64,000 nucleotides of DNA from Oculina patagonica (Eukaryota). The position numbers and the translations under genes were made by a program. Location: contig NC_135763.1 of NCBI RefSeq assembly GCF_052425735.1, positions 14,446,001 through 14,510,000 on the forward strand, written 5' to 3'. The first letter of the stretch is position 1. Every line of letters starts with the position of its first letter. The notes beneath the pieces are model-generated. The model saw nothing but the letters and a program-made list of their open reading frames with translations. It made no database searches and was not told where the DNA came from. Of this stretch, positions 1,190-47,497 are shown one piece after another.

Positions 1190-2217
1190 GTTCGCTTGAT
1201 ATGTAAGGTCACGATCGTGTTGCCTTCGCCAAAATCCACCAGTTTACCTGTAGTCTCGCTCACTTGCGTTTCAATAATGTCCACAATCTGGTTGCGGAGT
1301 GGAATATATTGTATGTGGAGAGGTTCAAAGTACTTGATACCTTTTCCTTCACGTTGAAAGTGAATTTCCCGCAACAGATCCGTGACTTGATTTCCCACAA
1401 CGGAACTACCACCCACGTCTGAGTAAACGAAAAGCGTACGCGATGCATCTCCAATCACTTTTTGGAAGGCTCTGTTGAGTTTCACAAAGCGCCAGTTACA
1501 ATAGCAACTCAAGAAAAGCTGTCCATTCTCAACAACCCAGAAATTTTTCTTGCCCTCTCCAAAATCATCCACGTCTATGGGATCGGGTATCGTAGCGTGG
1601 TGGCATTCCGGCTTCAGGTTCGGCCCGAGAAACACGTTTTCTTTCTCGTTCTTTTTTACCCATCCCATGTCAAAGGCCAAATCCTCGTTGAAAGACATGT
1701 AGTATGGGACGCCTTCAGTTTTCACTTCCGAGACGTCCAAGTTCGAGTTGTCGAGGACTAGCTCTTCACCTTCCCACTTGAAAGTATATTCCCACTCCTT
1801 TCCATTATCTGGCGACTTGGTCAAGTCTCCCACGATACGCTTGTATTCTTTGACTTGATCGAACTTGAAGACCAGGGCTTTCATGAAACTGAGGCCATCC
1901 ACGATGTTGTCGTCATATAGAATGTCCTGGAACGTCAGATCGGTGGTCACCGACTTGCTTTGCACGCGACCCTCCTTGTCTTTGCGCTTGAGCATCCACT
2001 GGGCACTCAAGAGAGGAAACTTGAACGACTTAAAGCGAGTTAAGTCGATGCTGGCATCTGGCACGGAAATGCTACTCAATCCCACTTTCCAACCGGTTCC
2101 TTCCAATCGTAGCGGGTGAGGTAATCGCACCTTGAAAGAGTTTGCTCTATTCTCTGGAAACTCGGTTCCGCTGCTGTGACTGGGTAACGTGACGTAAAAT
2201 CCTTCCTCGTGGCTCAT
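1186..2217 (-). CDS. Polinton minor capsid protein (penton, single jelly-roll)
   Basis: FYVTLPS.SS...FPEN....F.V.LP..L.L...W.VGL N-terminus and LFVYSD...S.VG......LLR...YIPL C-terminus, characteristic of Polinton pentons. Confidence 0.88.
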   Translation of the reverse strand: MSHEEGFYVTLPSHSSGTEFPENRANSFKVRLPHPLRLEGTGWKVGLSSISVPDASIDLTRFKSFKFPLLSAQWMLKRKDKEGRVQSKSVTTDLTFQDILYDDNIVDGLSFMKALVFKFDQVKEYKRIVGDLTKSPDNGKEWEYTFKWEGEELVLDNSNLDVSEVKTEGVPYYMSFNEDLAFDMGWVKKNEKENVFLGPNLKPECHHATIPDPIDVDDFGEGKKNFWVVENGQLFLSCYCNWRFVKLNRAFQKVIGDASRTLFVYSDVGGSSVVGNQVTDLLREIHFQREGKGIKYFEPLHIQYIPLRNQIVDIIETQVSETTGKLVDFGEGNTIVTLHIKRT

Positions 2218-3293
2218 GATTTTTTTAGAGCCGTCTTCTCGATCCAGCTGTCGTACTTGTCTGGCCAGCCTTTCCAGTGCACCAAGACTTTATTTCCTTT
2301 TCGTTTGACGATCTTGTCCACCCTGAAGACATCGTCGTCGGACACTGCGACTTTTTGTAGATCTTCCTTGTAAAACGTACCGCGAAGGGGGGTGTCGTCC
2401 AACTCTTGGATCTTGTAAGTCGTGACGGGTGGTCCCCGACGCACCTCTCGTATCACAAACACTTCTTCGGTCCAGCCGGGTAAATACCCTTTCTCGAACG
2501 TGCGAAATTTCTTGTTCAATCTCACGCGTTCTCCTACTTTTAGCGGGGGTTTTCGATCTCTTTTACCCGACGACAATCTCTTCGCGTACAGACGTTCCCA
2601 CACTTTTCCTTCGTTGCTCGCATTCACTGTCTCAGGGCTGGTGCCGATGCTACGATGGTGGGATCCGTTGTAACCTTTCACCAAGGCCTGGAGTACGGGT
2701 AGGTAACTGAGCGTGTTCTTGGCGGTAAAGTATCGGTACATGCGTTCCTTGAGAGTGCGGTTGAAGCGTTCCACGGTGCTGGCTTTGGTATCTCCGGCCG
2801 TGGAAAAGTGGTGGATGCCTTCCCGTTTCATCAACGCGGCAAACGTCTTGTTGTAAAATTCTTTCCCGTCGTCGGTCTGTAGGTTCTGAGGTTTGCGTCC
2901 ATCGGCTCGTTTCAAAATCTTGGCAAAGGCGTCCGACACCGTTTTTCCCGTCTTGTCTTTTAGGGGTTCCACCCAGGCATATTTAGACAAGACGTCGATC
3001 ACGTTGAGTAGATATCTGTGACCCTTGTTGTATTTGGACAACGGTTGCGTTTCCACTAAATCGGCTACCCACTGTTGGTCGACGTTAAACACCAGGACCG
3101 GTAACGCGGCGAAACGACGTCTGCGCGGTTTGTGAAGGGTATAACCCAAATCGCGCTCCAATACTTTTTTGGCTGTGTCGACGGATATCTTGTGCGATTT
3201 GGCGAATCTTGTTATCCCACCCAAGCTACCCGGTTGACTGGGATCGTGGTAGTCCGAAAGTATTTTTTTATCCTTTTTCAGCTTCTTTGGCAT
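2214..3293 (-). CDS. Retroviral-type (rve) DDE integrase with C-terminal chromodomain
   Basis: Catalytic motifs QWVADL, LQTDDGKEF and VERFNRTLK. Chromodomain-like VDKIVKRKGNKVLVHWKGWPDKYDSWI. Confidence 0.96.
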   Translation of the reverse strand: MPKKLKKDKKILSDYHDPSQPGSLGGITRFAKSHKISVDTAKKVLERDLGYTLHKPRRRRFAALPVLVFNVDQQWVADLVETQPLSKYNKGHRYLLNVIDVLSKYAWVEPLKDKTGKTVSDAFAKILKRADGRKPQNLQTDDGKEFYNKTFAALMKREGIHHFSTAGDTKASTVERFNRTLKERMYRYFTAKNTLSYLPVLQALVKGYNGSHHRSIGTSPETVNASNEGKVWERLYAKRLSSGKRDRKPPLKVGERVRLNKKFRTFEKGYLPGWTEEVFVIREVRRGPPVTTYKIQELDDTPLRGTFYKEDLQKVAVSDDDVFRVDKIVKRKGNKVLVHWKGWPDKYDSWIEKTALKKS

Positions 3294-6412: not shown

Positions 6413-7350
6413 CTTAAACAACAACAACAAATACCGCACGCTAAATTATATTTTTTCGCGAACGGTGAAAATCACAACAAAGTCGATGACACTTGTGCTT
6501 AGAGTCCAAAAATATGAAATTTTCGGCTCAATAACTTTCATCGAAATAATATCTTTAATGGTTGGTCGTCTTTTAGATTTAAGGGCGGCAAAAAAACATT
6601 TTTTCTTCGAGAAAAAACATTTGAACAACGGCCGAATGAACCACCTACAACAATTATATATTTTTAGCGGCCGGTGAAAAATCACAACAAACTCGTTGAC
6701 TCACTTGTTTAGGGTGTAAAAATGTGAAGATCCGGCTCAATGACTTGCTTTGAGATTCACTAAAATAATATCATTCATGGTTGGACGTCCCTTTCATTTC
6801 AGGGCCGCAAAAACAAACAAACAAACAAACGCATTTAAACAACAACAAATACCGTACGCTAAATTATATTTTTTCGCGAACGGTGAAAATCACAACAAAG
6901 TCGATGACACTTGTGCTTAGAGTCCAAAAATATAAAATTTTCGGCTCAATAACATTCATCGAAATAATATCATTCATGGTTAGACGTCCCTTTGATATAA
7001 GGGCCGCAAAAAAAAAATTTTCTTCGAGAAAAATGCATTTGAACAACGGCCAAACGAACCGCACGCTAAAATTATATTTTTTCGCGAACGGTAAAAATCA
7101 CAACAAAGTCGTTGACACACTTGTTTAGAGTCTAAAAATGTAAAAGAGTCGGCCCAATGGCTTGCTTTGCGTTTTACTAAATTAATACCATTCATGGTTG
7201 GACGTCCCTTTTGATTTAAGGGCCGAAACAAAATTTTTTTCCTCGAGAAACAATGCATTTGAACAACGGTCAAATGAACCGCTCGCAAAAATTATATTTT
7301 TTTCGCGACCGGTGAAAAATCACAACGGAGGCGGTGACACACTTGTTTAG
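6413..7350. repeat. Internal tandem array of ~210-bp units (4 full, 1 partial)
   Basis: The anchor ATCACAAC recurs at 6471, 6681, 6889, 7097 and 7319 (spacings 210, 208, 208, 222). Units 1/3 and 2/4 are most alike. Confidence 0.9.
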
Positions 7351-8877: not shown

Positions 8878-11800
8878 ATGGAAGCTCCTTTTGAATTTGA
8901 ACTGAGAGGTCACGTGGACCGCAGAGTACGCAGATTTGGGCTCCACATCAGAAACTTTACCGGACGTTTAATACAGACAGGTGGTGGCGCCGCAGTAGGA
9001 TCCGCACCCCTGGGACCGCGCCCCGTACTCGTACAACAGATTGCCAGAGCCCTGCAGAGAGCCGTGCAGCGCCATATTTTGGACGACGGAGCCGTTGGAG
9101 ATGACGACCACTTGTTGATCAACATCAACAGTAACAGGATTCAAAATGCTTTTCATTCCAGACGGCTGAGAGTGGGAGAGTGGCGAGAAAACACCGTCGC
9201 TGCCCAACAGCTGCTAAAACAAATCAGTGACATGCTGAACAGTAATCAGACTTTTCAAGTGGACGACACGTTCAACCTAAACGTGTCTCACGTGCAAGAT
9301 CCAGGCCGAGGGGGAGACAACCAGAAACACAAACCCGGTTTGGACCCCATCGAGGACATCCTGCAAAAAAAAAAATGTGTCTTCAAGATAAAAAACACCG
9401 ACCAGTTATGCTGTGCCCGCGCCTTGGTGATGATGAAGGCCCGTGCCGATTTCGGGACCGACCATTGGTACTACTCCAACTTAAGGAAGTACGATACAGT
9501 ACAGGAAAGGGCTGCCAGGGAACTACACCGTTTGTCCGACGTGCCAGAAGGTCCTTGCGGGTTGGACGAATTGGCCAAATTTCAAGCCCACTTGAACGCT
9601 TACCAGATTGTGGTGGTGTCTGTCCAACATGGTTACCAGATCATCTTCAAAGGAGCACAACGCCCCGACGACAAACGTTTGATCTTGATCAAACACCATG
9701 ACCATTACCACGGCTGTACCTCCCTAGGGGGATTTTTTGGCAAGAGTTACTATTGTACCAAGTGCGAAAAGGGCTTCAGCCACAACGACCGCAAGGAGCA
9801 CAACTGCCCGGGGGCCAGGTGCGCCGCCTGCCATCAGACAGATTGCCACGAATGGAAGAGAGCCCACGCTGTACCCAGGGTGAACTGTACAGACTGTCAA
9901 CGGGACTTTTTTGGAACCCGTTGTCTTCAATTGCACAAGAGTCGCACCGACACCGGCAAAGACATGACCCGAGACAAGAGGAACAGCGTGTGTGACAAGC
10001 ACAAACGGTGTGCGGGCTGTTTCAAGACGTACGGTGACTATGAACTGAGAAACAGTCACAAGTGCGGCCACGCTCTCTGCCCGTCTTGTAAGGAATACCA
10101 AGATCTTCGCTACCACCAGTGCTACATACAAAATCCTCTCAAGGTGAAACAAAAACAGAACCGCAAGAGAACCAGCGCTGGTCAACGCAAAGAAGACCAA
10201 CCACCCGTGTTCGTCAGTTGGGACGCCGAAGCCACGCAGGAAGAAGGCCAGCACGTGGCCAACTTGATTTGCGCCCTGAGAGGAGACACCGACGAGAGGA
10301 GAACCTTCGAGGGAGAGACTTGCGTGAAAGACTTTCTCGCTTGGTTGAGGGAGATCGCCGAACAACACCGCGTCATAGCTGTCGCTCATAACTTCCAAGG
10401 CTACGACTCCTATTTCATCCTGAACGAGTTGTACGACCAAGCCATCTGCCCTGAACAAGTCGTCAATGGTGCCAAAATAATCAGCATGACCATCCCCAAC
10501 ATCACCTTTAAGGACTCCATGTGTTTTCTACAGATGAGCCTTGCTACCTTTCCCAAAGCCTTTGGCCTCACCGAACAAAAGAAGGGGTTTTTCCCCCACT
10601 TTTTCAACACGCAGGAACATCAAAACTATGTGGGCAGCATGCCTGCCAGAGACTATTACGATCCAGAGGGAATGTCCGCTGCCAGGAAAGCCGAATTCGA
10701 CAAGTGGTACGAAGAACGCGTGGCGGAGAATTACGAGTTCCACTTTCGGAACGAACTTGTCGACTACTGTCGCTCGGACGTGGAGCTGTTGCACGAAGGT
10801 TGCAAGGTCTTCCGGGCAGAGTTTCAAGCCATTGCCGGGTTCGATCCCATGGACCAATGCCTCACCATTGCCTCCGCCTGTAATCGCTTCTACCGCACCA
10901 AGTGCATGCAAGAACAGACGTTGGCTTCTGAACCGGTACGAGGCTGGGAAGGCAAGGGCAAACCTCACTCGCACGTCTCGCTGGAATGGTTGCTGTATCA
11001 AGACAGCCAGACGCAGGGTACCATCCGCCACGCCAGGAACGGTGGAGAACGAGCCTTGTGGATTGGAGGCCGTCTGATCAACGTCGACGGGTACGAGGAT
11101 CGCACGGTTTACGAGTTCCACGGCTGTTACTTTCACGGCTGTCCTGACTGTTTTCCCAATCGCGATCAGAAGCACCGGAAGATGGGCGACAGAAGTCTGA
11201 GGGACGTGTACGCGGAAACGCAACAAAAGACGCAACGGATCCGGGATGCGGGTTACCGCGTGGTAGAAATGTGGGAATGCCAGTGGAAAGCGCTCAAGGA
11301 CAGTGATCCCGAGGTGAAATCGTTCGTGGACTCGTTGGCGATCAACTCCCGCTTGGAGCCCCGAGACGCGTTCTTTGGCGGTAGAACCAATGCCGTCCGC
11401 CTCTATGACCTTGCCGAACCTGAAGAGGAGATCCGGTACGTGGACTTTACTTCATTGTACCCATGGGTAAATAAAAACTGTGACTACCCTCAGGGGCATC
11501 CCGAAGTGATCCTAGAACCGGGACACACAAACATTTCACAATTCTTCGGTCTGGCAAAGTGTACGGTGACGCCACCTTACGGGTTGTACAGCCCCGTGTT
11601 GCCCTATCGCCAAGGGGGTAAACTGACATTCCCCCTCTGCCGTACCTGCGTGGAAGTGGAGCAGCCCAAGCCATTGACCCAGCGATCCTCCAAATGCGCT
11701 CACAGCCCTCAAGAACGCCAACTGACCGGAACGTGGTGCACGCCCGAGTTGGAAGAGGCCGTCAAGCAAGGGTACGTGGTGGAGCACATTCACGAGGTGT

Positions 11801-12744
11801 GGCACTTTGACCGCAAATCCAACACCATGTTTAAAGAGTATGTCAACACCTTCCTGAAGATGAAGCAGGAAGCGAGCGGCTGGCCCTCGTGGGTGGGCGA
11901 CGATCCAGACAAGCGCCAGGAATACCTGAGACAGTTCTTTCTCAAAGAAGGCATCCAGTTGGATCCGGACAAGATTGAAAAGAACCCCGGACGCAGATCC
12001 CTGGCCAAGATCATGCTCAACTCCTTCTGGGGGAAATATGGCCAGAGAGGTAACAAGACCCAAGTAGAAGCCTTCACCTCTGCAGCTGAGTTTCACGACT
12101 TGTTAAGAGACGAGACCCGAGACATCCACGACATCCGGGTCGTCAATCCAGACATGTTGGAGGTGGTCCATAAGTGCAAGGAGGACTGTGCCAACATTCA
12201 ACCGGATATCAATATATTCGTGGCCTGCTTTACGACCACCTGGGCCCGTTTGAAGCTGTACCAAGAAGGTCTTTCCATCCTACAACCCGAACAGATCTTG
12301 TATTTTGACACGGATTCTCTAATCTACAAACACAGAGAAGGGCAACCCTCCTTACCGTTGGGTGATTACCTGGGAGACTTTACCAACGAGCTAGACGATG
12401 ATGACTTCATTGTGGAATTTGCCGCCGCGGGACCAAAAAACTATGCCTACAAGTCCAAATTGGGAAAAACCTGTTGTAAAGTAAGGGGTTTTTCCTTGAA
12501 CGTGAGAGGATCCGCCCATCTCAACTTTGAGACATTGAAAGACAACGTCCAATCCGAAGTGAAAGAGCCCTTGGCCGAAACGAGGAGCATTGCCCTGTTC
12601 AACCCTCACAAGATCACCCGAGACAAAACGACCAAAACCCTGAACACTGTGACGGAGATCAAGCGCTATCAAGTGGTTTTCGACAAGAGAGTGGTAGATG
12701 CCAACACCTTTATGTCATACCCCTATGGTTACTGTAAGGCCTAG
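8878..12744 (+). CDS. polB: Protein-primed family B DNA polymerase (pPolB) polyprotein, main exon
   Basis: Exo I WDAE, Exo II HNFQGYD, Exo III YCRSD, Pol A DFTSLYP, Pol B KIMLNSFWGKYG, Pol C YFDTDS. N-terminal DQLCCARAL...HDHYH (OTU-like protease), Cys-rich Zn region, and Vsr-like insert VDGY...YEFHGCYFHGC...MWEC. Frame uninterrupted. Confidence 0.97.
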   Translation: MEAPFEFELRGHVDRRVRRFGLHIRNFTGRLIQTGGGAAVGSAPLGPRPVLVQQIARALQRAVQRHILDDGAVGDDDHLLININSNRIQNAFHSRRLRVGEWRENTVAAQQLLKQISDMLNSNQTFQVDDTFNLNVSHVQDPGRGGDNQKHKPGLDPIEDILQKKKCVFKIKNTDQLCCARALVMMKARADFGTDHWYYSNLRKYDTVQERAARELHRLSDVPEGPCGLDELAKFQAHLNAYQIVVVSVQHGYQIIFKGAQRPDDKRLILIKHHDHYHGCTSLGGFFGKSYYCTKCEKGFSHNDRKEHNCPGARCAACHQTDCHEWKRAHAVPRVNCTDCQRDFFGTRCLQLHKSRTDTGKDMTRDKRNSVCDKHKRCAGCFKTYGDYELRNSHKCGHALCPSCKEYQDLRYHQCYIQNPLKVKQKQNRKRTSAGQRKEDQPPVFVSWDAEATQEEGQHVANLICALRGDTDERRTFEGETCVKDFLAWLREIAEQHRVIAVAHNFQGYDSYFILNELYDQAICPEQVVNGAKIISMTIPNITFKDSMCFLQMSLATFPKAFGLTEQKKGFFPHFFNTQEHQNYVGSMPARDYYDPEGMSAARKAEFDKWYEERVAENYEFHFRNELVDYCRSDVELLHEGCKVFRAEFQAIAGFDPMDQCLTIASACNRFYRTKCMQEQTLASEPVRGWEGKGKPHSHVSLEWLLYQDSQTQGTIRHARNGGERALWIGGRLINVDGYEDRTVYEFHGCYFHGCPDCFPNRDQKHRKMGDRSLRDVYAETQQKTQRIRDAGYRVVEMWECQWKALKDSDPEVKSFVDSLAINSRLEPRDAFFGGRTNAVRLYDLAEPEEEIRYVDFTSLYPWVNKNCDYPQGHPEVILEPGHTNISQFFGLAKCTVTPPYGLYSPVLPYRQGGKLTFPLCRTCVEVEQPKPLTQRSSKCAHSPQERQLTGTWCTPELEEAVKQGYVVEHIHEVWHFDRKSNTMFKEYVNTFLKMKQEASGWPSWVGDDPDKRQEYLRQFFLKEGIQLDPDKIEKNPGRRSLAKIMLNSFWGKYGQRGNKTQVEAFTSAAEFHDLLRDETRDIHDIRVVNPDMLEVVHKCKEDCANIQPDINIFVACFTTTWARLKLYQEGLSILQPEQILYFDTDSLIYKHREGQPSLPLGDYLGDFTNELDDDDFIVEFAAAGPKNYAYKSKLGKTCCKVRGFSLNVRGSAHLNFETLKDNVQSEVKEPLAETRSIALFNPHKITRDKTTKTLNTVTEIKRYQVVFDKRVVDANTFMSYPYGYCKA

Positions 12745-12796: not shown

Positions 12797-13211
12797 GATG
12801 GGAAACCTACCGCAACACGTTGATATAGTTTCAATCGTACCCACGTTGATCGTTCTCCATAACTGAATATTTAATAACTTACTTGTCGACATCTTTTGAG
12901 ATATAAACACTCTCGCCGCTCGATTCGTACTCGTTCCCAGTAAAACCGAGAAAGGGGGATACCCCCTCATCCCCCCGCTCTGACGTGTTTTTTTTTTTAA
13001 TACTTCACAAGCGTGCGTTTTTTCAGAATCGCTGAAGCAATGTAGACTCATCTGCGCATGCGTTTAGTGCAAAGTATTGAGTTCCAGATGCCACAAGGAC
13101 AGTATGGCACTTTGTGAACCATATCTATAGGATGGTGGTCTTGCTAACTTTTCATTCCCAGGGTGCGCGGCCACTAGGGCTTAGTGAACATTGACACAAG
13201 GAAAAAAAAAT

Positions 13212-13283
13212 ATCCCCAGCGAGGACTCGAACCTCGATTGCCTACCTCAGCGGCAGGAGTGATACCCGTTACACTACCGGGGC
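13212..13283 (-). ncRNA. tRNA-Gln(CTG)-like Pol III gene inside the Polinton (non-canonical)
   Basis: Minus strand reads GCCCCGG TA GTGTAACGGGTATCAC T CCTGC CGCTGAG GTAGG CAAT CGAGG TTCGAGT CCTCG CTGGGGA T: a 72-nt cloverleaf with A and B boxes and a T9 terminator at 13202-13210. G at position 33 and a G1-A72 mismatch are non-canonical. Confidence 0.75.
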
Positions 13284-13435
13284 TTTAGGACCACTTGTTA
13301 CCGTTTTTTAGTGTCTTGTACCTTAACAGAAAAAACCTGTTATTAAAAAAAACCTGTTTTTACACCTATTTTCTTGTCTTGTCGTTTTTTCCGCGCGAGG
13401 ACTGGGACCAAGTTCATTCTAACCGTTCGGGAACT

Positions 13436-13702
13436 GGGACCGACTGCTGTGACGTCATCGCCTCCGAGTCACGTGATTTTTTCCCGTTTCATCCATTTTT
13501 TGCCCCTTTTTAAAAAAAATTTCCGAGGGGGACTGGGGCGAGCGCTTTTTGGCCGTTGGGGCCTAGAACCGAGACTCGGACCACCCTGGGACCGACTCCT
13601 ATGACGTCATCCCTCCCAAGTCACGTGATTTCCCCCTCTACGCATGCGCAGAAATGCTGCTCTGTGATTGGCTAGATCCGAACTTAAGCGGTCCTTACTA
13701 CT
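13436..13702. repeat. Polinton terminal region (probable TIR) with a duplicated CRE + E-box module
   Basis: GGGACCGACT...TGACGTCATC...GTCACGTGATTT at 13436-13479 and 13588-13631, ending in ACTACT at 13697-13702. TIR length cannot be set without the other end. Confidence 0.7.
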
Positions 13703-14140
13703 ACCGTTCCAAATTTTTTTTGCTCCTTTTGCTTCCTTTTTTTCTGCCTTCTTATTCTCCTTACTTTCTACTCTTCATATCCTTTCTTTTGGCCAAAAAA
13801 GTTTTGACGTTATCATTGGAAAACACTGAAAAGGGGACCTTGACCAATTACAGGTGTACTGGCCTGTTTAAGCAACGATTTTGCACCAAAAATGGATTGT
13901 GCTTTTCTTTGATTAGCTCTGTCAGAATGCAACCGATATTCAAAATGAACCGTCCTATAGAAAGGTCGATCCAAGCTCTGTCAGATTCTTATCACGAAAT
14001 TCCACTGACGTGCTTATTGATGACGTCACAATTGAATCAATGACTGCACCTCCAAATAGCGCCTGAATGCGCGTTTAGGAGTGAAAGGGTTAAGGGCGCT
14101 TTCCATTTGACAGAACTGGCCGGCCGGCCCGGTGGTTAAT

Positions 14141-45924: not shown

Positions 45925-47497
45925 CCGACCGATTTCGGTTCTTCCCGTCCTCTCAAAAATCTTTGAAAGGCACTTGCACAACTCTCTGTATGCCTTTCTC
46001 AGGGAAAACAACCTTCTATATCAACTGCAATCCGCCTTCAGGAAACACCACTCAACGGAGACAGCTCTAATCAACATCATCGACCGTATGCTGTTCAATC
46101 TCGATGACAACCGCATTAACGGCTTGGTTCTGGCTGACTTTCAAAAGGCTTTCGATCTTGTTAACCACGACATCTTGTTTGAAAAGCTGCGTATCTATGG
46201 TCTGGATGAATGCAGCCTGGCCCTTATGCGCTCGTTCCTTCAAAATCGCAGGCAGCGCACGGTCATCCGCGGTAGTGCACAGTCTTCGTCCCAGGCTCTC
46301 ACACATGGTGTACCACAGGGATCCGTACTCTCTCCACTACTCTTCCTGGTATTCATAAACGATCTTTCCGAGGGAGTGTCACAACCAACCACAGTCGACA
46401 TCTTTGCGGATGATACAACTATGAGCTCATCCTCGCCATACACTGATACTTCTGGTCTATGCTCCAGGCTCTGTGAGAGCACCCGTGAGCTTGAGGACTG
46501 GACTAGAAATAACCGTTTCAAACTAAATATCGAGAAGACGAAGTCTATGTTTGTAACTGGGAGTAGGCTACGCACTAAGATCGGTAGTACCGGTGTCGAC
46601 GAGATGAAAATCTGTACTAGCAGCGGGGAAGCCTTAGACAATACCACAAGCCACAAGCTTCTTGGAGTCCATGTTGATCAAGACCTAAGTTTCAATGAAC
46701 ATGTCGAACACTTATGTAAGAAACTAGCAAAGCGTTTAGGTGTTCTTAGGTCAATCAGACATTATCTTCCTCTAAACGAGCGCATACTCTTCTACAATGC
46801 AACTATAAAGCCTATATTTCTGTACGGCGGAGCAGTCTGGAGTTCAACATCTAAAAGTAACATAAGAAGAATTTTTCGTCTCCAGAAAAGGGCTGCCCGT
46901 GTTATCCTAGGCGTTAAAACAAGAGATGAACGTACTGTAAGTTTATTTAAGAGACTAGACTGGTTGCCCTTTTATGATGAAATCACTGTTAATAAGCTAT
47001 GCTTAATTTACAAATGCCTAAATGGACAATGCCCAGAGTATTTAAGGAACAGACTTGTAAGTGTCAATGACATGTCCACCAGAACCTCGCGCTATGGTGA
47101 TATTACTTTACGCTGTCCTCGGTATAACCGTGAAACGGAAGGTGGAAGAACTTTTCTTGTTTCAGCCACTAAATGTTGGAACTCTTTGCCTATATATATT
47201 AGAACTAGCACTAGCATTAAGGCCTTTAAACATAATTATAGTAATTTTATTAAGGAAGGTTATGCCGACTTAGATAGCTTTCCCATGTCATAATTTTTAA
47301 ATTTTTATACTGTCACACCCAAATTACTGTTTGTATTTTTATCTAGTTTTTATCTATCTTATCTGTTTTCATTTTTTATTGATAATATATTTGTAGTAGT
47401 ATTAACTTTTATTCTAGGGGAGGGCCACAGGTTTTTCAGTTTTTAACTGTAATGTGTAACCCTCATTAAATAAAGTTGTTATTATTATTATTATTAT
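45925..47497 (+). mobile_element. 5'-truncated CR1/L2-group LINE (reverse transcriptase ORF 45974-47293)
   Basis: RPISVLPVLSKIFE, QSAFRKHHSTETAL, DFQKAFDLVNH, GVPQGSVLSPLLF and FADD motifs. 3' UTR with AATAAA and an (ATT)n tail ending ~47497. Confidence 0.93.

Follow-up and report, generated by a model that had tools for sequence, protein, structure and literature searches.

A conserved tRNA-shaped unit with RNA polymerase III signals in the terminal inverted repeats of Oculina patagonica Polintons

Viral tRNA-like RNAs that are uncharged yet functional have been described in murine gammaherpesvirus 68, where a cluster of eight TMERs combines a tRNA-like head with microRNA hairpins (PMC4337559). 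The adenovirus VA RNAs I and II, for which a tRNA origin has been proposed, come from small genes on a linear, protein-primed DNA element and are built of an apical stem, of a central domain with a GGGU/ACCC stem and of a terminal stem (PMC7589676). Genes of tRNA type also occur in polinton-like viruses and virophages (PMC12220804, PMC6905037 and PMC8502044, in the last of which they are flagged in a figure legend); glutamine anticodons are common in one virophage clade (PMC6905037). Among host loci, fission yeast tRNA genes act as barriers that need TFIIIC and RNA polymerase III (Pol III) (PMC2040200). Polintons themselves are usually read via their proteins, and their terminal inverted repeats (TIRs) are treated as replication and integration signals. 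A conserved small-RNA gene in a TIR would add a class of non-coding gene to animal Polintons. A search of the literature, mostly open-access and with the supplementary tRNA tables of PMC12220804 and PMC6905037 outside its scope, yielded no description of tRNA-like genes from the TIRs of animal Polintons.

We analysed a stretch of 64,000 nucleotides of the Oculina patagonica genome (the window), the first 13.7 kb of which are the right part of a Polinton whose termini read AGTAGT and lie 20.2 kb apart. The assignment to Polinton/Maverick (adintovirus-like) elements relies on the presence of an rve integrase, a protein-primed type B DNA polymerase (PolB), TIRs starting with AGT, a 6-bp target site duplication and a size of the 15-20 kb order (Table 1). 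The element also carries a gene with a parvovirus-type PLA2 domain and an ORF (1186-2217) resembling Preplasmiviricota proteins, one cluster of which is named minor capsid (26% of members); the ORFs tried gave no Pfam or PHROG match for a capsid or packaging ATPase. Among the at least 120 relatives listed for the polymerase, the closest named ones are labelled as from stony corals. Within the Polinton, tandem repeats of ~208 bp occupy positions 6420-7330 of the window, following the last plus-strand ORF and preceding the polymerase gene. The insertion is adjoined by a minus-strand array of rhodopsin-family GPCR-like genes (15338-50265), within which lies a reverse transcriptase fragment (46088-47293).

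The tRNA-shaped unit sits 419 bp inside the right TIR. The initial annotation had proposed that it is Polinton-borne and had named its recurrence in the left TIR as a check; the left TIR, ~6.5 kb before the window (L021:3529 onwards), holds an identical unit, and both TIRs of the 20.2-kb Polinton therefore carry it. The unit had also been described as pointing towards the 3' end of the polymerase gene. This applies to the right end, where the two are convergent, but not as a general rule: at either end the unit is oriented inward from the terminus, and on the left it faces the PLA2-like gene. The first canonical poly(A) hexamer past the PolB stop codon is at 13342-13347, beyond the unit.

Table 1. 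Features of the right end of the Polinton, in coordinates of the window.
Feature	Position	Strand	Remarks
tRNA-shaped unit, variant 1	13212..13283	-	72 nt; anticodon CTG, G33, G1-A72 mismatch, U73
A box	13266..13276	-	fits TRGYNNARYGG, which we take to be the type 2 Pol III consensus; present in all variants
Anticodon loop	13246..13252	-	C32-G38 pairable, giving a five-base loop R-C-U-R-A common to three lineages
B box	13223..13233	-	fits GGTTCGANTCC, which we take to be the consensus; present in all variants
T9 run	13202..13210	-	predicted Pol III terminator; T6 to T11 in other copies and variants
Right TIR of Polinton	12925..13702		ends ACTACT
6-bp target site duplication ACCGTT	13703..13708		flanks element
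Protein-primed type B DNA polymerase gene (PolB)	8878..12744	+	convergent with unit
rve integrase with chromo domain	2214..3293	-	domain match
Motif cluster	13450..13671	-	motifs presumed to be CCAAT, E-box, CRE-like and NRF1-like; between terminus and unit

The 72-nt sequence can be drawn as a cloverleaf (minus strand, 13283-13212) with the stems named in the initial annotation, namely acceptor CCCCGG/CTGGGG, anticodon CCTGC/GTAGG and T CGAGG/CCTCG. The G33 and the G1-A72 mismatch are present as it had them, and the D stem contains in addition a U13-U22 mismatch. ARAGORN called the unit as tRNA-Gln(CTG), the sole tRNA that it called in the 64-kb window. An Infernal-type score had been suggested as a check; with Rfam model RF00005 the unit reached 36 bits against a cut-off of 29 (E 1.7e-5, 1.6 kb searched), and an Rfam scan of the full 64-kb window missed it. 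Variant 1 has the properties expected of a canonical tRNA cloverleaf, a length of 70-76 nt and a match to the tRNA model. Its predicted fold is a cloverleaf of unremarkable stability (z -1.14; 28 of 200 shuffles fold as well). The A box, the B box and the T9 run that had been reported are all there, but the terminator is not immediate: one A intervenes, and the run starts one base after position 73. All five distinct sequences of the unit found in the genome have the type 2 Pol III layout, with internal A and B boxes and a T run downstream. In promoters of this type the internal boxes direct Pol III, and the RNA expected from the unit is about 75-80 nt long. The unit is likely, judging by this layout, to be an RNA polymerase III gene.

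The suggestion that the unit resembles VA RNA did not hold for structure, since the 72-nt cloverleaf has no long apical or terminal stem and only the tRNA model matches it at E<=1. VA RNA is about twice as long as the unit. The likeness lies in the small gene, the internal A and B boxes, the T-run terminator and the linear, protein-primed carrier, and none of the three structural domains of VA RNA I/II has a counterpart in the unit (PMC7589676). If functional, the unit would have its nearest working parallel in murine gammaherpesvirus 68 with its uncharged viral tRNAs, and it appears closer to gammaherpesvirus viral tRNAs than to VA RNA. In contrast to the TMERs, the unit has no microRNA hairpins, the run of T6-T11 following at once, and it is a single gene type duplicated in both TIRs instead of a cluster of eight (PMC4337559); TMERs are viral, whereas the unit, a putative gene, resides in an integrating Polinton of an invertebrate. 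The tRNA-type genes of polinton-like viruses and virophages belong to the same broad virus lineage (PMC12220804, PMC6905037, PMC8502044). They are read as ordinary decoders in protist elements, whereas the unit has a constant purine 33 and drifting identity, and the sections available from the two papers contain no mention of TIR placement or of a non-canonical loop (PMC12220804, PMC6905037). With tRNA-gene/TFIIIC barriers the unit shares A and B boxes at an element/host boundary; the barriers described are host loci and orientation-independent, whereas in the unit the whole fold is kept and the orientation is fixed (PMC2040200).

The genome was searched with an 84-nt query and with a fold pattern. 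All 33 scored candidates of the query were in Polinton ends (25 at 100% identity, one decayed and 7 of a second variant), and the fold pattern gave 36 matches (25 of variant 1, 7 of variant 2, 3 of variant 3 and one unrelated tRNA-like sequence), compared to 3 with a reversed control. No unit copy outside Polinton ends was found among these matches, which rely on shared words or an exact pattern and may miss more distant variants. A dispersed tRNA-derived SINE was ruled out, as 33/33 and 35/36 matches were Polinton ends and a control host repeat yielded 109 dispersed candidates. Similarly, the unit in the left TIR and the 25 TIR copies dispose of the possibility, raised in the initial annotation, of a SINE head or a tRNA pseudogene present in this copy only. 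Variant 1 is present at both ends in eleven elements, and 10 of the 11 polymerase matches of at least 93% identity have it beside the polymerase gene. The other two lineages have the unit at a similar place: variant 2 (7 copies) is 321 bp inside a TIR of another type, and variant 3 (3 copies) occurs in a 31-kb element, 366 bp into each of its 2.6-kb TIRs, and in a truncated remnant, at a depth of ~450 bp. Across the three lineages the distance from the terminus is about 320-450 bp, the orientation is always inward, and clusters like that at 13450-13671 also precede variants 2 and 3. Combined, these results identify a real, lineage-spanning, Polinton-specific tRNA-shaped unit.

Some Polintons do without it. 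One element, whose TIRs are 99.4% identical and whose polymerase frame of 1312 aa is open, has the unit at neither end, and three further ends (L032-L034) are also without it. Those TIRs that were located in more distant Polinton families likewise showed no such unit; 6 of 14 elements of these families gave no partner TIR in the DNA examined; the polymerase-side end was examined for 20 of the at least 117 polymerase matches listed, a large family of 38% identity being outside this set, and Rfam blanks in other TIRs weigh little because Rfam does not report variant 2. Since some intact-looking elements lack the unit, it behaves like accessory cargo and not like a core replication signal.

TIRs and polymerase genes do not always travel together. 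Mismatched TIRs were observed in the elements G000:C10:13927106-13948056 and G000:C8:28881087-28900524 (the combinations being types 1 and 2, and type 1 and a type without the unit), and a type-1 TIR also flanks a polymerase that is only 50% identical (C3:18317033). Three composite TIRs of 2.1-3.0 kb were found (L022:1390-3513, L184:1179-3777 and L150:273-3293); those of L022 and L184 include protein-coding frames (PLA2-like in L022) and a second TIR-type repeat set, and in L150 a type-1 TIR is nested inside the outer terminus. The mismatched and nested TIRs indicate that ends and polymerase genes are shuffled between elements by recombination.

Shuffled TIRs, a decayed copy of the unit and at least one intact-looking element lacking it would suit a neutral relic, that is a tRNA or the head of a tRNA-derived SINE captured once in an ancestral TIR and copied by homogenisation and module shuffling, with no selection. 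Dispersed tRNA-derived repeats similar in size to the unit occur in the host; one matches variant 3 at 48/72 positions, and one host tRNA-derived repeat was inserted in another Polinton copy. The pattern of conservation, however, makes such a relic quite unlikely. Variants 1 and 2 are identical at 61 of 72 positions, variants 1 and 3a at 53 and variants 2 and 3a at 49; in the three lineages the conserved block extends from position 1 in the acceptor stem to the T run, with no gap except for one D-loop base, and the 60 bases upstream of the variants agree at 14-17, which is the chance level. The unit diverges less than its flanks at two depths. Firstly, in the 25 type-1 ends none of the 72 unit columns varies, compared to 14 of 144 in two adjoining stretches (four neighbouring stretches of 72 bases have 10, 4, 22 and 8 variable columns). 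Secondly, variants 3a and 3b are separated by 4 changes in the 71 positions of the unit, all of which keep pairing, compared to 120 in the 662 positions around it. The Fisher test gave P 0.003 in the first comparison and P 0.003 in the second, values that overstate the case because the copies are related and the TIRs homogenised.

Pairing was compared separately. Across the five distinct sequences, 88% of stem cells are paired; 1 of 500 shuffles was as high, and slid controls gave 43-57%. Copies of the host repeat break 3 to 7 of 15 stem pairs, compared to 0 to 2 in the unit, which again argues against a relic. The covariation across Polinton copies that had been suggested as a check was recovered in part: the five sequences have two-sided changes at pairs 2-71, 30-40 and 32-38, but shuffles matched the count in 49 of 500 cases for three sequences and in 52 of 500 for five. 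Pair-break simulations gave P values of 0.003 to 0.16 depending on direction, and of 0.16-0.21 for 3a and 3b. Covariation is weak because there are only three lineages, and both covariation and conservation come from a single genome with few independent variants. Judged from these comparisons, selection on the whole unit is well supported, and selection on pairing as such is modestly supported. Between types 1 and 2, further blocks of the TIR also align, at 80-87%, a level as high as that of the unit (85%); on these alignments the unit is one among several conserved modules of the TIR.

The constant and the variable features of the unit depart from the pattern of a canonical tRNA. All variants keep the A box, the B box, the D, anticodon and T stems and the loop R33-C34-U35-R36-A37, and in all of them a T run of 6-11 lies within 0-3 bases of the discriminator. 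From variant 1 to variant 3 the anticodon changes (CUG, CUA, CUG), as do the discriminator (U, C, G) and pair 1-72; pair 2-71 is C-G or G-C, and variant 3 has a G5-G68 mismatch. Position 33 is a purine throughout (G33, A33, G33), and in two lineages positions 32 and 38 form a C-G or U-A pair. The unit has neither U33 in a seven-base loop nor stable identity elements. The argument against normal decoding that had been drawn from G33 and the 1-72 mismatch is supported, as purine 33 is found in all variants and the mismatch in two lineages. U33 sets the anticodon turn and G33 curtails decoding, and some natural mistranslating tRNAs carry G33 or A33 (PMC11415595).

These mistranslating tRNAs (PMC11415595) are consistent with a weak decoder, which would be a tRNA-Gln reading CAG in variants 1 and 3 and an amber reader in variant 2, with a loop perhaps altered to escape the tRNA nucleases of the host. 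C34, U35 and A37 are constant, CUG is kept in 2 of 3 lineages, the polymerase gene ends in TAG and one virophage clade carries mostly glutamine tRNAs (PMC6905037). The best phage matches of variant 1 are tRNA-Gln(CTG) (77% identical, E 3e-5), but a control host repeat also matches phage tRNA-Gln, at 76.5% (E 0.05). The changing discriminator, the 1-72 mismatch in two lineages and the anticodon switch in one argue against decoding, and tRNA-Gln(CTG) genes are already numerous in the host. In the element CAG is used 71 times and CAA 119 times, much as in six host genes (17 and 25), and TAG ends only 2 of 16 ORFs; codon supply and amber read-through thus found no support in codon use or stop codons, and we regard a decoder as quite unlikely.

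Nor was descent from a eukaryotic tRNA-Gln, as implied by the initial annotation, upheld. The unit is identical to the host tRNA-Gln gene at 41/72 positions and at 12/34 stem positions; host tRNA-Asp is closer (46/72 and 26/34), and the D arm resembles that of host tRNA-Val. Variants 2 and 3a have no strong phage match. A phage origin was not favoured over a host one, as the loop-masked mean over four variants ties between phage tRNA-Gln (45.75, the best hand-picked one), host tRNA-Asp (45.25) and a host repeat (46.5), within a host panel of Asp, Gln, Glu, His, Gly, Val, Lys, Thr, Met, Pro and repeats that covers part of the isotypes. Dispersed tRNA-shaped repeats with a valine-type D arm occur in the host (L168, L169, L170, L174; L162, L163); they give dozens of pattern matches, often 300 bp apart, and are identical to unit variants at 39-50 of 72 positions.

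We favour, with a probability of about 0.45, the reading that the unit is a gene from which Pol III would make a non-decoding tRNA mimic, and that this RNA would act in trans on behalf of the Polinton. The internal boxes would direct TFIIIC and Pol III to the unit, and transcription would end at the T run, from two gene copies per element, one in each TIR; the cloverleaf RNA would be handled like a pre-tRNA. Purine 33, together with a 32-38 position able to pair, would disrupt the anticodon U-turn, and with the 1-72 pair, the discriminator and the anticodon all varying, no stable identity for a synthetase would remain; the RNA would therefore stay off the ribosome. More speculatively, the RNA might be a decoy during element replication, along the lines of the gammaherpesvirus viral tRNAs, and engage a host protein that binds or cleaves RNA of tRNA shape, for which a stress kinase and an anticodon nuclease are guesses. 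The function is placed in the RNA because the acceptor and anticodon stems, which are outside the promoter and not needed by it, are kept. Against a tRNA mimic, the unit is dispensable in one intact-looking element and missing from the distant families examined.

Alternatively, the unit could act in cis, TFIIIC and Pol III at each end shielding the integrated element from host heterochromatin or blocking run-through between the convergent gene and the terminal promoter and origin, with the RNA as a by-product. The constant position in both TIRs, with the terminal motif cluster on one side and the first convergent gene on the other, would suit this role, as would the drift of anticodon and discriminator and the presence of a second, unrelated class of A/B-box unit in the TIRs of two other elements. 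The first poly(A) hexamer of the convergent gene lies beyond the unit in variants 1 (right end), 3a and 3b, but poly(A)-like hexamers are common in AT-rich flanks. The fission yeast tRNA genes provide a precedent for a barrier requiring TFIIIC and Pol III, but that barrier is orientation-independent (PMC2040200) and the unit always points inward. Furthermore, a barrier would need the boxes only and could do without pairing in the acceptor and anticodon stems and without a constant purine 33; we consider a role in cis unlikely. If the unit did act in cis, the Polinton would be a mobile element bringing its own Pol III boundary at both ends.

If the unit does encode a tRNA mimic, the 72-nt RNA would be a cheap marker of Polinton activity and a testable model for the passage from a tRNA gene to a viral decoy RNA. 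A broader proposal, which we put forward as doubtful, is that animal Polintons encode a selected non-decoding tRNA mimic as an exchangeable TIR module, intermediate between a tRNA gene and a VA-type decoy, that counters a cnidarian RNA-sensing or tRNA-cutting defence.

Outside this genome, the unit patterns gave 0 matches in viral contigs and 0 in prokaryote genomes. No relatives of the polymerase were found in the viral contigs, and 3 polymerase-relative loci from metagenomes were without the unit. The stretch is contained in 19 sequencing runs from 7 studies under five organism labels, none of them on record as RNA. Contigs from 4 of the 19 runs cover the unit, and 0 of the 40 differences listed (76 more are unlisted) fall inside it; such contigs are uninformative on the strand, ends or level of any RNA.

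Other tRNA-related sequences were seen in or near Polintons. The second A/B-box and T-run class is present in both TIRs of two other Polintons (L091:1616-1715 and L108; L094:2319-2410 and L109/L140), whose polymerases are 73-74% identical to that of the window. These units point outward, are 65-74% like a dispersed host repeat of ~80 bp and differ between the two ends of one element (91-92%). A further A/B-box unit near another polymerase gene (L091:976-1075) turned out to be a dispersed host repeat. Inside a Polinton that is more distant, its polymerase being 52% identical, lies a tRNA-Asp(GTC)-like gene (L117:9733-9806, minus strand; the same in L189), away from the TIR, that is 77-78% identical to host tRNA-Asp and keeps U33. 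Finally, an inverted arrangement of tRNA bodies of serine type, with the anticodon GAA, is found at L098:1249-1984, ~2.5-3 kb beyond the polymerase gene of a Polinton.
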